64,000 nt of DNA from Escherichia coli (lineage in GTDB: Bacteria > Pseudomonadota > Gammaproteobacteria > Enterobacterales > Enterobacteriaceae), in assembly GCF_013315695.1 (NCBI RefSeq), contig NZ_CP054353.1; one strand, given 5' to 3'. Positions 48,001 to 54,000 of the stretch are shown here, piece by piece. The position numbers are program-made. Each line of letters opens with the position of its first letter. Positions within the stretch are counted from its first letter, which is position 1.

Positions 48001-51000
48001 AACTGGCGTGCTTGGGTAAAAGAGGTGACTGATGCTCATAGATTTGGTTTTACCTTACCCGCCGACGGTGAACACTTACTGGCGACGCCGTGGCAGCACA
48101 TATTTTATCTCGGAGGAGGGAAAGCGTTATCGCCGGGCTGTGGCGCTTATTGTTCGCCAGCAGCGGCTGAAATTAAGCCTGTCCGGAAGGCTGGCGATAA
48201 AGGTGATTGCAGAGCCACCGGATAAGCGTCGTCGCGACCTGGACAATATCCTGAAAGCACCGCTGGATGCGCTGACGCATGCGGGAGTGTTAATGGACGA
48301 TGAGCAGTTTGATGAAATCAATATCGTTCGTGGTCAGCCAGTATCTGGTGGACGTCTGGGGGTGAAGATTTACCCCATAATGCATGAAGAGCAGGTCAAA
48401 AAATGAAACTGGAAGATTTACCGAAATACTACTCCCCAAAATCCCCTGGCCTGACCGATGCATCGGCCTCAACGTCAAAAGATGCGCTGAGTATCACTGA
48501 TGTGATGGCCGCGCAGGGCATGACACAGAATCGGGCTGAGATGGGTTTTTCTGCGTTCCTGGGGAAAATGGGCATCAGTATGAATGACAGGGTGCGGGCA
48601 ACAGAATTACTGGCAGATTATGCACTCAGTCGGTGCGATCGTGTGGCGGCGTTGAGAAAACTTCCGGCAGAAATAAAACCGGTAGTGATGCGCATTATGG
48701 CTTCGTACGCTTTTGAGGATTATGCCCGCAGCGCAGCGAGTAAAAAGCAGTGCCCTTGTTGCTATGGGGAAAAATTTATTGAAAGCATAGTTTTTACAAA
48801 CAAGGTCCAGTATCCGGATGGTAAGCCGCCGGTATGGGCAAAGTGTACGAAAGGTGTGTATCCGTCTTACTGGGAAGAATGGAAAAAAGTCAGGGAGGTG
48901 GTAAAAGTTGCCTGTCCGGAGTGTGGCGGAAAGGGTGAGGTTTCCACCGCCTGTAAGGATTGCCGTGGGCGTGGTGTCGCCATTCACCGTGAAGAGTCGG
49001 TAAAACGTGGTATGCCTGTTATCAGAGACTGCCAGCGTTGTGGTGGTCGTGGCTATGAAAGACTACCATCAACGGAGGCATTTAATGCTATATGCGAGGT
49101 GACAAACCAGATAACACGCGCGTCATGGGAAAAAACAGTTAAGAAATTCTATGATGCGCTGGTGACCCGGTTTGATATTGAAGAAGCATGGGCTGAGCGG
49201 CAGTTAAAAAAGGTAACTAGGTAACAAGGTTGATTTTTCCGGAATCTGTGGTAAATTCGTCATAACGATGGGCCTTTTATGCCTGACGTTAGAAGAGTTT
49301 CTACAACCCGCCGCCGAGCGGGTTTTTTATTGCGGAATTAATTACGGACCGTTATTATTCTGCTCCCGGCCCTTTAGCTCAGTGGTGAGAGCGAGCGACT
49401 CATAATCGCCAGGTCGCTGGTTCAAATCCAGCAAGGGCCACCATCACAAACCGCCATTAGCTTATCAGGAAGAGCAGACGACGCGATAACAGGGTTGTTG
49501 GTGCGGGGGCGGGTCCCCGATGGCGGTCCATTATCGGTATTCAGCGTTGTTAGCTCAGCCGGACAGAGCAATTGCCTTCTAAGCAATCGGTCACTGGTTC
49601 GAATCCAGTACAGCGCGCTATATTCATTCTTCCAGATTCCTTCCGGCAGAGCCTTATACTGAAATATACCTGGCTCAGGATATTGTTGAAAATATTATAT
49701 GTTTGTCAAAAATAAAAGTTCTGTTAAGTATTGATTGAGTGTTTGTTATACGGTCTAATGGTTTTTTCAGCATTAAATATTTATCATTCATATGGTGTGG
49801 GTAGAGTGAATATTGATGAGGCGTCGGGGTGTTTCATCCTTAGGCAGCGTATTGATATAGTCAATGCAGCACGAGCAAAGGCCTTCAGCCGTTTGACAGT
49901 TTTGTTCTGTACTCCTGATCGTCTTTCGGGAAGAGACGTTATTATTCTGAATAGTGATGCTATTCAGAGGGTTTGCGATGAGTTCATGGTTGCTAATTCA
50001 GAATTATTTGCTCTTGTTCAGGAGTACAACAGAATAGCCAGGACCTGTGGTATGGATGAACTTCGGATTACTCATCTGGGGTAGATACATATCTGGATTA
50101 TCACTTGTTACGGTAAAAAGTGATTGCTTACTGTTTTTGTGAGTGGCATTGCAGCAGCCGGATAATGTCAGTGCTGGCTGACGGTGTGCTGGTGGCGGGT
50201 GTGGTGGTTGTTGCTTTCCCGTTGCTGAAAAAGAAAACGCCAGACTGTTAGCCGGGTATCAGTTAGCGGGAGAAATTTTTAAATACTTCACAATTCAGGC
50301 GGTTGACTGTTGTCTGGTTTGCGGGGAGTTTGTTAAAAGAAACTGGCATGGTGAATCCCCCTGTGCGGAGGGGCAATCAGCGAGTAGGTATATGGGATAA
50401 TCGCGGATTCAGGTGCTGGTACTGAATTCACCGGGAGGCACCCGGCACCATGCAATGGCACATAGCGCCACTCTCCAGCCCCTCTCCGGAGGGGCTGTTT
50501 ATATTGATTTTGTCAGATGTGAGTAAACTCCTTATGGACTTTGTTGTTTTAGTCCATAAGGACATATTTGCAGAGTGCAACGGTTATTAAAGCATTCATT
50601 CAATACGTTATCTGTATTTGTAGGACATTCCTGGCTGTTTTTGATTAAATTCCAGAATGTTTTATTGAATGGTGCTACGTTGTAAATGGTTACAGGTAGC
50701 ACTTTGTTATTGAGCATGATACCTGTGTGAGTCAGTGTAAATATACTTTCAGGAGGTAAGAAAGCATCCGATTGATACCAGATTATTAATTTTATTTTAC
50801 TCCATATGACTGAAAAAGATATTCCGCATGATGGCTGGATAACTGTATCAATCACAATCCACTTCATTTAGTTTCCTTGTTTATGTCTTGCTGGTGATGT
50901 TCTGAAAAGTATAAATGATATTTTTGAATGTAAACCATAGAGCAGAATTATTTTTCTGATGTTGTTTATTGTTTATTTAAATGCAGGGTGGTTTATATCT

Positions 51001-54000
51001 CGTCTTGTAGTTTATCCATGCATATCTGCTTGATGATGAGGTTTTTATTTAAGGTATGGTTTTGTGTTTTTTCTGTATTACATGTCAGGTATTTTAAAGA
51101 ATTATTTTTCAGATGGTGGAAAGAACCATGGCATTTAAACACTATGATGTTGTCAGGGCGGCATCGCCGTCAGACCTTGCGAAACGACTGACACAAAAAC
51201 TGAAGGAGGGGTGGCAGCCATTTGGCAGTCCGGTGGCCATCACGCCTTATACCCTGATGCAGGCCATTGCGGCGGAAGGTGATGTCACCACACCTGTGGT
51301 GGTGAAGCCGTCGGATGGAGAAGGCGCAGTTATCAGCAACACCAGCAACCCGGAGTATTACTTTGTTGTTGCCCTGGCCGGGCAGTCAAACGGTATGGCG
51401 TATGGTGAAGGGCTTCCGCTGCCGGAGACATATGACCGTCCGGACCCGCGTATTAAACAGCTGGCGCGTCGCAGCACTGTCACGCCGGGTGGTGCGTCCT
51501 GTAACTACAATGACATTATTCCTGCGGACCACTGCCTGCATGATGTTCAGGATTTGAGTAAGTTTTCACACCCGAAAGCCAGCGCAGCTCAGTATGGATG
51601 CGTGGGGCAGGGATTACATATCGCGAAGAAATTGTTGCCGTTTATTCCGGCGAATGCCGGTATTCTTCTGGTTCCGTGCTGCCGTGGTGGTTCTGCATTT
51701 TTGGCGGGCGATGAAGGTACCTTCAGCGAATCCACCGGCGCAAGCGAGACCTCGGCACGCTGGGGTGTAGATAAGCCACTGTACAAGGACCTGCTTACCC
51801 GTACTCAGGCCGCACTGAAGGCCAACCCTAAAAATATTCTGCTTGCAGTGGTCTGGATGCAGGGCGAGTTTGATTTGAAACAGGGTGCATACGCCACTCA
51901 GCCGGGGCTGTTTGATTCCATGGTGGAAAAATATCGTTCTGACCTGTCGGAATTCGGAGGTCAGTGTCTCGGGGGCTCTCCGTCATCAGTTCCCTGGATT
52001 TGTGGCGACACGACCTACTACTGGAAGCAGACTTATTCTTCGCAATACGATGCGGTGTATGGTGCATATAAGACGAAATCCGCAAAAAAAATCTTCTTTG
52101 TGCCGTTTATGACGGATGAAAACGGGCGAAATGTGGGTACCAACGAGCCGTCAGAAGATCCGGATGTTGCGGATATTGGGTATTACGGAGCCGGTGGTCG
52201 AACGGACGCCAAAACCTGGACGACGGCTGACCGTAAAACGCATTTTGGATCATGGGCACGTCGTGGGATTATTTCCGACCGTCTGGCAACGGCGATTCTT
52301 GTGCATGCCGGGAGAACCGCTGAATTCATTACCGGAAAACAGCCTGATACGGTGAAGCCCACCGGACCTTCCGGTGAAGGTACGGAGAGAGAGCCGGAAG
52401 GTCCGGTCAGTAACCGAACCCTGATGAGTCTGCTGGCGTCCGGCGAAGACCTGGCATCACAGGGCTGGCGCTATTATCACAAACCGGCGAGCGGAGACAA
52501 TGTTAACAAAAACATTGCTGAAGCGGTGGTCAGTGATGCGGGGGCTACGGGAGGTAAGGCCCTGCAACTGAATAAACCGGAAAACCACATCTGGTTTCTG
52601 GAGCATGATGCAGCCGGGCAGGGGGCAGAGTTGCTGAAGAAAGGAGGACGTGTGAGCGTACGGTTTAAGTTGCCGGGTTCACTGGTGCCGAATCAGTTTG
52701 CCCTGGGCATTTACTGGCAGTTGTCGTCCCTGCCGGAGGGAGTGACGCTGGCAGAGGAAGGCAACGACATGCTGATGTCCTTCTTTCTGCAGACGGATGC
52801 GACGAACCTGAACGCGATGCACCACAAGAAGCCGAATGCGAAGCTGGAAACGTTCGGGGTCTTTGATAACGGATGGCACACACTGGCTTTTGAGTTTGCC
52901 GGAAACAACAGCATTCAGGTGACGCCGGTACTGGATGAGAAACGGGGGACGCCGTTCACACTGGTGAAATCTCCGGCATCAGGGGCGGCGGACAAACTGC
53001 AACTGACAGGCATATCAAAGGCGGCGACATATACGCTGCTGATTGACAGTGTGAAGGTGGAAGTGAACAACGCGGATGCCGCGGCATGATAAAAAAAGGC
53101 CGCCAGCAATGAAGGAAAGGGATGAACTGTGTCCACTACATGAATGCTGGCGGCTGGTAAAACGACCACGATGACACCGAAGTTTGCGATATTTTTCTAC
53201 AAAAATAAGTAAATCATGTCAACTATCACGGTGAGAAACCATGACATTTCTGAACCAGTTAATGCTGTACTTCTGTACGGCAGTCTGTGTTATGTATCTT
53301 CTTTCGGGTGGGTACAGGGCAGTGCGCGATTTCTGGCGCAGGCAGATTGATAAAAGGGCCGCTGAGAGAATCAGCGCCAGTCAGTCAGCCGGAAGCAAAC
53401 CCGAAGATCCGCTCATTCCGTAGTCACTTTCTTGACAACACCTTTCAACGAGAAAATCCCATGTCAGAAATCACATCCCTGGTCACTGCTGAGGCAGTGA
53501 AGGAAGTCCTGCGCTCTGAAGAAGTCCTGAGCGCACTGAAACAGAAACTCCGCCAGAACCTTGAGTCGCGTCTTGATGCAGAAGTGGATGCCATTCTGGA
53601 TGAGCTGCTGGGCGTACCAGCGGTTCCGGAGCCGGAAGGTATCGCGGGTGACGGGAGTGCTTCAGATGGCGGTGAACCCACACCTGACAGCGACATGATG
53701 ATGTAAGCCTGCGCAAGGGACCATCGGTGTGTGCCGGTGGTCTTTATATTGTTGTGAGCTTCCGGATAACGGGAGACGGGGTATGTACCAGATGGAAAAA
53801 ATCACAACAGGTGTGTCATACACCACGTCAGCGGTGGGAACGGGCTACTGGTTCCTGCAGTTGCTGGACAGGGTTTCCCCGTCTCAGTGGGCGGCAATAG
53901 GCGTGCTGGGGAGTCTGCTGTTTGGGCTGCTGACATATCTGACTAACCTGTATTTCAAAATCAGAGAGGACCGGCGTAAGGCGGCGCGGGGAGAGTAAAG

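Follow-up and report, generated by a model that had tools for sequence, protein, structure and literature searches.

What occupies the position of the Shiga toxin genes in a prophage whose late region is laid out like that of a Stx phage, but in which the stretch between the tRNA genes and nanS-p holds no stx genes? The question is raised by a prophage of Escherichia coli (contig NZ_CP054353.1 of assembly GCF_013315695.1), of which a stretch of 64,000 nucleotides, the window, was analysed; the stretch concerned, the block, covers positions 49650-51112. An earlier note made from the sequence had described the block as very low-GC cargo expressed at high level under control of the antiterminator Q, in which nothing resembled anything recognisable. 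Our analysis leads to a different description. With high confidence, the block, located in a lambdoid prophage's late region, is composed mosaic-fashion of four small accessory modules and is essentially the iraL locus of the potB prophage of E. coli CFT073. Of the four elements, three can be assigned to described families: the open reading frame (ORF) of 111 amino acids is IraL, the hairpins are part of an Rfam STnc100 small RNA (sRNA), and a short hydrophobic peptide belongs to Pfam family DUF3927. The largest ORF encodes a regulator that has been characterised experimentally, from a published locus, and the sole uncharacterised part is a conserved gene, here called ORF92. The block is thus ordinary accessory (moron) cargo, largely characterised and with a minor annotation gap, and the main value of the analysis lies in this correction, by which an apparently unknown cargo of the Stx slot becomes the known iraL locus.

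The iraL gene and its locus

The earlier note had placed two ORFs in the block, one of 117 amino acids on the plus strand (49731-50084) and one of 111 amino acids on the minus strand with its own ribosome-binding site (RBS), and both were found exactly as claimed. The minus-strand ORF (50532-50867), preceded at 7 nt by an AAGGAA RBS, is by its sequence iraL, encoding an anti-adaptor of RssB that is a paralogue of IraM. Its product is identical to CFT073 IraL at 110 of 111 residues (residue 65 is A in the window and V in CFT073) and the genes differ at 3 of 336 nucleotides, which places the window gene in the IraL group, delimited by an identity of at least 95% with CFT073 iraL along the entire coding region (PMC4045071). 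The protein also matched the IraM family model NF007393 of NCBIfam over residues 1-110 (162.4 bits, cut-off 121), was 63% identical to K-12 IraM (b1160) over 107 amino acids in a gapless alignment, and matched the N-terminal domain of IraM (PDB 8TWD) over residues 1-78. Pfam gave no match for IraL, the IraM family being modelled in NCBIfam and not in Pfam, and the PADLOC models gave nothing significant. IraL and K-12 IraM thus share one family and the activity of RssB anti-adaptors (PMC4045071, PMC10844676), whereas IraL has four extra C-terminal residues and lies in another genetic context. A match of the ORFs to well-characterised moron proteins was one of the two outcomes that the earlier note had named as speaking against its view of the block, and for the 111-amino-acid ORF this is what was found.

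The function of iraL has been described in CFT073, where the product of the gene (c1429, formerly ycgW) interacts with RssB and stabilises RpoS in logarithmic growth (PMC4045071). The gene lies on the potB island of that strain and has a transcription start of its own, mapped by 5' RACE in ordinary log-phase growth (PMC4045071; Hryckowian et al. 2014); later work found iraL raised at 37 C as well as in a fur mutant. Other characterised anti-adaptors are stress-induced, whereas IraL is active in log phase without stress and contacts RssB in another way (PMC4045071). In the window prophage iraL would likewise be expressed in the lysogen, its product binding the adaptor RssB and blocking delivery of RpoS to ClpXP, with the consequence that the level of RpoS would rise during exponential growth. 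The iraL locus shows in this way how a temperate phage can reset the general stress response of its host while it remains lysogenic.

The AT-rich region upstream of iraL (50868-51127, minus strand) contains the AAGGAA RBS and a putative promoter, whose candidate hexamers are TTTACA (~50934-50929) and TATACT (~50913-50908). Between 50868 and 51112, 7 of 245 positions differ from CFT073 (97% identity), none of them within the candidate hexamers, so that the upstream region lies above an identity of 96% to CFT073, and the flanking genes are shared as well. At the other end of the gene, a perfect 12-bp hairpin (50528-50561, minus strand; -17.5 kcal/mol, z = -4.4) overlaps the last iraL codons (…GLKQQSP and the stop codon) and may be iraL's own terminator. 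The same hairpin accounts for the four C-terminal residues that IraL has beyond K-12 IraM.

The similarity to CFT073 extends over the whole locus. An alignment of window positions 49540-51200 with the potB-prophage locus gave a mean column identity of 98%, and the annotated gene order of CFT073 matches: antiterminator, tRNAs, DUF3927, IraM-family gene, DUF1737/nanS-p remnant and holin. In both loci iraL runs antisense to the late operon and is preceded by an AT-rich region. They differ in that the window prophage has an intact nanS-p of 658 amino acids where CFT073 has a remnant, lacks the IS200 that lies between Q and the tRNAs in CFT073, carries two tRNAs rather than three, and has a different integration module, not at potB. 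The window integrase gene (33889-34914, minus strand) adjoins a tRNA-Ser(CGA) gene (33747-33836), and the prophages of CFT073 and SCU-484, whose late regions are near-identical to that of the window, are inserted at potB/potC with another integrase. Since the late regions are near-identical while integrases and sites differ, the iraL block appears to travel between integration modules.

The GC content of the block is 39.2%, against 53.7% for the window, and is unevenly spread: 31.7% in the spacer between tRNA and ORF, 41.9% in the segment of the 117-amino-acid ORF, 51.5% in the DUF3927 ORF, 55.3% in STnc100, 34.2% in iraL and 28.6% in the iraL upstream region. The description of the block as very low in GC therefore holds for the iraL half (29-34%) and fails for the centre (51-55%). 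The elements on the plus strand, located 3' of a putative late promoter and terminator (pR'/tR'), would be read through under Q, and the high-level expression by Q antitermination proposed earlier could apply to these alone, because iraL lies on the opposite strand and has its own promoter in CFT073 (PMC4045071). Q-dependent readthrough would run antisense across iraL, so that iraL would belong to the lysogenic phase rather than to the late genes.

The STnc100 small RNA and the tciA-tciB remnant

The centre of the block is an STnc100-family sRNA on the plus strand (50317-50506). The Rfam scan aligned it to the full model RF02076 (positions 1-206) with 132.4 bits, against a gathering score of 47 (E 2.4e-30). 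Its 3' hairpin was called as an intrinsic terminator by the terminator scan and consists of a stem at 50476-50497, with 9 G+C-rich base pairs, followed by the T-rich tail TTTATATTGATTTT (-20.3 kcal/mol, z = -5.5). This is the strong hairpin of the earlier note, gcccctctccggaggggc, which is real but lies at 50478-50495 and not at ~50462-50480. The z score of the terminator, the 132 bits of STnc100 and the homologues of both larger ORFs show that these features do not arise by chance.

The sRNA links the block to Stx phages. In Shigella phage 75/02 Stx, 109 nt located 3' of stxB are 100% identical to window positions 50346-50454, and this core of STnc100 (~50346-50454) is conserved in many Stx phages. 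STnc100 has been located 75 nt downstream of stx2 (PMC12370729) and related to the PasD small RNAs that adjoin a sialate esterase gene (bioRxiv 10.64898/2026.05.13.724894); in EDL933 several copies are transcribed, one of them confirmed by Northern blot (PMC5331693). The window element resembles STnc100/PasD in its position 5' of the sialate esterase gene and 3' of the stx slot and in the intrinsic terminator at its end. It differs in its 3' terminator arm, which is a variant; homology to JLK-2012 and mEp460 ends at 50454. We take the plus-strand element to be probably a structured sRNA with its own terminator, corresponding to the one located 3' of stxB in Stx phages.

A 42-amino-acid ORF on the minus strand (50336-50461) lies inside STnc100 and was rejected as a gene. 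The Prokaryotic Genome Annotation Pipeline (PGAP) calls it an 'incomplete hypothetical protein' pseudogene in both SCU-484 and CFT073, most likely an annotation artefact. In some related prophages that lack iraL, one or two extra tandem STnc100-like copies, 70-96% identical, occupy the interval from STnc100 to nanS-p (4951-5178 in locus L024; 6846-7068 and 7325-7550 in locus L026).

Upstream of the sRNA lies a small ORF (50120-50251, plus strand) that encodes 43 amino acids from a GTG or 28 from an ATG at 50165 and is annotated in RefSeq as WP_000562553.1. The 28-residue hydrophobic peptide suspected by the earlier note exists as the shorter form, at 50165-50251 including the stop codon (50249-50251) rather than at ~50155-50241. 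The ORF matched Pfam PF13064 (DUF3927) with E 1.8e-27, residues 2-43 corresponding to model positions 7-53, and PHROG 1470 ('TciB-like'). Full-length DUF3927 homologues have 50-54 amino acids and two hydrophobic helices, and their genes overlap the end of tciA, a TerB-like gene located upstream. The window ORF retains only the second hydrophobic helix, along with the KKK tail; IAYCFCEWHC stands in place of the first helix, and no tciA precedes the ORF.

Alignment with tciAB of phage JLK-2012 accounts for this structure. In the window, the last 33 codons of tciB, with the sequence downstream of them, are ~94% identical, whereas tciA is reduced to ~30 nt of its 3' end and tciB has lost 11, 4 and 5 nt from its 5' end; these deletions removed its ATG and scrambled its first hydrophobic helix. 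Positions 50087-50164 (plus strand) hold these residual ends, and with tciA deleted and the tciB helix lost, the DUF3927 part of the block is best described as a decay scar, the probable remnant of a tciA-tciB pair that encoded a TerB-like protein and a small two-helix membrane protein. Relative to CFT073 the DUF3927 ORF has 3 nucleotide differences, all synonymous, and both RefSeq records share the protein accession. PADLOC found nothing significant for the DUF3927 ORF or for an intact TerB-like/DUF3927 pair, and a literature search on DUF3927/TciB returned unrelated papers only.

ORF92, a conserved gene of the late region

The longest frame over the remaining part of the block is the plus-strand ORF of 117 amino acids, which begins with TTG at 49731; counted from an in-frame ATG at 49758 it would have 108 amino acids. 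Every divergent homologue begins at the position of a GTG at 49806, and the 25 N-terminal codons of the 117-amino-acid frame are not conserved among them. The gene is accordingly taken to be the 92 codons from this GTG (ORF92, 49806-50084, plus strand). It matched PHROG 2873, a family of unknown function, with E 3.8e-70, and had no match in Pfam, NCBIfam, the PADLOC defence models or PDB sequences, a profile search of the latter returning a designed coiled coil alone (E 0.004). Word-indexed and exhaustive protein searches showed the family to be small, with homologues of 91-95 amino acids at 33-65% identity.

Comparison with the variant in locus L008, whose protein is 60% identical and whose gene is 67% identical at the nucleotide level, gave a ratio of nonsynonymous to synonymous substitution rates (dN/dS) of 0.29 with zero indels over 92 codons; by this pattern of substitution ORF92 is under purifying selection. 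The AlphaFold2 model was confident (predicted local distance difference test score, pLDDT, 88.9) and showed a helix at residues 3-35, a beta-hairpin at 39-46 and a second helix at 50-81. No signal peptide or membrane segment was predicted, and the predicted product is cytoplasmic. In a Foldseek search the best solved analogues were prefoldin beta subunits (e.g. PDB 2ZDI), a weak match with a TM-score of 0.71 and E 0.026. The likeness consists of two long antiparallel helices and a short beta-hairpin; identity is 9-16%, E-values are weak, the root-mean-square deviation is ~8 A and ORF92 is a bacterial prophage protein, so that the resemblance is one of shape alone. Membership of ORF92 in the prefoldin beta family was rejected on the absence of a Pfam or PDB sequence match and the weak likeness in shape. 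Matches in AFDB were uncharacterised enterobacterial and phage proteins of ~95 amino acids, and a search of viral folds in BFVD gave no match at E <=0.001. A terminator-like hairpin within ORF92 (49920-49938) falls in conserved coding sequence and was treated as incidental.

ORF92 recurs in the same company. In three unrelated prophage backgrounds (loci L013, L017 and L018) it is followed by a TerB-like gene, a DUF3927 gene and the holin gene, and an AraC-type gene often lies 5' of it (loci L008, L017 and L019). In these last loci a gene for a 241-amino-acid AraC-family (HTH_18) regulator stands directly 5' of the divergent ORF92, within the region from Q to lysis (1933-2658, 3142-3870 and 3186-3911 in L008, L017 and L019, respectively). 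Locus L017 also has an intrinsic terminator of its own 3' of ORF92 (AGCTCGC-TACT-GCGAGC-TTTTTTT). In other prophages ORF92 thus heads a cassette of ORF92, tciA and tciB just 5' of the holin gene.

The other outcome that the earlier note had set against its view was that the ORFs are non-coding decay. This was found for the tciA-tciB remnant, and one could extend it to the plus-strand ORFs as a whole, leaving iraL and the sRNA as the only functional elements. Such an extension could appeal to the deletion of tciA and the truncation of tciB by three small deletions, to the weak RBS of the window ORF92, and to RefSeq/PGAP, which has no annotation over ORF92 in CFT073, in SCU-484 or in any of the 24 full-length records sampled from the 1185 complete E. 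coli genomes with the region. We regard it as improbable. Homologues of ORF92 with 33-65% identity keep its length and start point, the gene has diverged to 67% nucleotide identity with dN/dS of 0.29 and no indels, its structure model is confident, and it keeps its place before TerB-like and DUF3927 genes in three prophage backgrounds that are unrelated; even in the DUF3927 ORF the 3 differences from CFT073 are all synonymous. ORF92 is thus, in all likelihood, a real and selected gene that has not been characterised, with a coiled-coil hairpin of ~92 residues as its product. The practical value of this part of the analysis lies in the annotation gap at ORF92 and in the PGAP pseudogene that is really the STnc100 sRNA.

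An alternative of the opposite kind is that the trimmed pair still works, ORF92 and the residual DUF3927 peptide forming a late membrane module for superinfection exclusion, lysis timing or resistance of the colicin or tellurite type. One argument for it is the spread of the trimmed form: among 5426 complete E. coli genomes, the set used for all prevalence counts, the ORF92 region was present in 1185, and 1166 of these had the trimmed ORF92/DUF3927 form at >=99% identity. The trimmed form also occurs in the isolated phage mEp460. Near-identity of the copies is, however, equally explained by recent spread. The recurring order of ORF92, TerB-like gene, DUF3927 and holin and the synonymous-only differences in the DUF3927 ORF would suit such a module, but both tciA and the first membrane helix have been lost, which points to decay, no PADLOC defence model matched, and 'TciB-like' is only a name. 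On balance we find a working trimmed module unlikely, and keep to the description of the DUF3927 part as a scar beside a selected ORF92. We likewise give a low probability to the more far-reaching reading that ORF92 founds an uncharacterised late cassette of enterobacterial lambdoid prophages (ORF92, TerB-like TciA and DUF3927 TciB, before the holin) with a function of its own at the interface of phage and host, overlooked because RefSeq makes no call for it. ORF92 and the recurrent cassette are a modest lead.

Several observations weigh against the description of the block as a whole as an iraL locus with a conserved sRNA, a decayed tciA-tciB pair and a selected ORF92. The RBS before the GTG is a strong AGGAG in the 65% variant and a weak GGGTAGA in the window, so translation of the window copy of ORF92 is not assured. 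Taken as a whole, the STnc100 fold is barely more stable than shuffled sequence (z = -1.9). Differences from CFT073 that are synonymous only are weak evidence that the truncated DUF3927 ORF may still function. With 7 of 245 positions changed upstream of iraL, the promoter is only presumably intact, and RssB binding and RpoS stabilisation, shown for the CFT073 protein, are expected for the window allele from its 99% identity.

The Stx-type slot and its exchange among prophages

The layout of Q, two tRNAs, cargo and nanS-p recognised by the earlier note as that of Stx phages was confirmed. Q is represented by a Q-like late antiterminator of 273 amino acids with a DnaJ-type zinc-finger repeat (48403-49224, plus strand), which matched PHROG 127 and 25523 ('anti-termination protein Q-like', E ~1e-111) and is a RefSeq 'antitermination protein'. 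A putative late promoter pR' and terminator tR' follow at 49230-49331 (plus strand). The promoter candidate, read from the sequence, comprises TTGATT, 16 nt and TGgTAAATT and matches 8 of 12 consensus positions. The terminator scan placed the tR'-like terminator at 49305-49331 (-11.2 kcal/mol), with a stem at 49305-49324 followed by TTTTTTAT. A promoter-like site and a terminator between Q and the tRNAs make a pR'/tR' arrangement plausible. With the terminator ~40 nt beyond the promoter-like site, a short pR'-tR' transcript of ~65 nt would result, an analogue of the StxS small RNA of Stx phages, which is ascribed to early termination (PMC7547250). A sub-threshold match of Rfam Trp_leader at 49225-49331 (25 bits) was rejected as a generic resemblance to terminators.

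The first tRNA gene (49368-49443, plus strand) has the anticodon CAT and is called Met by ARAGORN and tRNA-Ile by RefSeq on an identical gene; the RefSeq call fits the lysidine-type ileZ tRNA of Stx phages. The second, at 49544-49618 (plus strand), is tRNA-Arg(TCT) according to both ARAGORN and RefSeq. The right border of the block is nanS-p (51128-53089, plus strand; RefSeq start 51128, longest ORF from 51113), encoding a SASA-family sialate O-acetylesterase with a DUF1737 N-terminus, and DUF1378, DUF826, holin and lysozyme genes follow 3' of it. The window therefore shows the full order of a Stx-phage-type slot, from Q, pR'/tR' and ileZ-type and arg tRNAs through cargo and STnc100 to nanS-p, DUF1378, DUF826, holin and lysozyme. 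The order in Shigella phage 75/02 Stx is Q, stxAB, an STnc100-type RNA element, SASA esterase, DUF1378, DUF826, holin and lysozyme. By this comparison the Stx-equivalent position is strictly 49619-50316, 5' of STnc100, and iraL occupies a second slot, from the sRNA terminator to nanS-p.

The borders of the exchanged segments were read from 80 IMG/VR prophage contigs carrying a near-identical E. coli ORF92, a sample informative on boundaries and not on divergence. Homology to the window breaks at 50086, just past ORF92, at 50454, the end of the STnc100 core (a break also present in phage mEp460), and at 50496-50499, past the terminator stem, and it resumes at 51127, the start of nanS-p. These recurrent breakpoints define an iraL module of ~50500-51126, which most of the 80 contigs carry and some otherwise identical ones lack. 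Among the complete genomes, iraL with its upstream region was found in 1445 of 5426 and the whole block at >=80% coverage in 862 of 5426. The gene also occurs in induced phage isolates, e.g. vB_EcoS-640R1, and the block in commensals isolated from healthy people.

The position between the tRNAs and nanS-p, where Stx phages carry stxAB, and the presence there of ORF92 without known function could suggest that the block is a new toxin or virulence cargo equivalent to Stx, strongly expressed from pR' under Q and released at lysis. The evidence makes this reading highly improbable. The largest ORF encodes the cytoplasmic regulator IraL and lies on the opposite strand. ORF92 encodes a 92-residue helical hairpin that has neither a signal peptide nor a membrane segment and matches no toxin family in Pfam or NCBIfam; the other ORFs belong to IraM and DUF3927, neither of which is a toxin family. 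Finally, the block is carried by commensal isolates from healthy people and by 16-27% of complete E. coli genomes. The slot is a hotspot of fine-grained modular exchange, with breakpoints at 50086, 50454, ~50498 and 51127, in which stx, tciAB, small RNAs and iraL replace one another.

Further upstream, in the matching RefSeq prophage, the type I toxin gene hokD and rem lie 5' of DUF968, RusA and Q (window ~45409-46245; 2384-3007 in locus L001), an arrangement typical of cargo at the early-late junction of Rac/Qin-like prophages.

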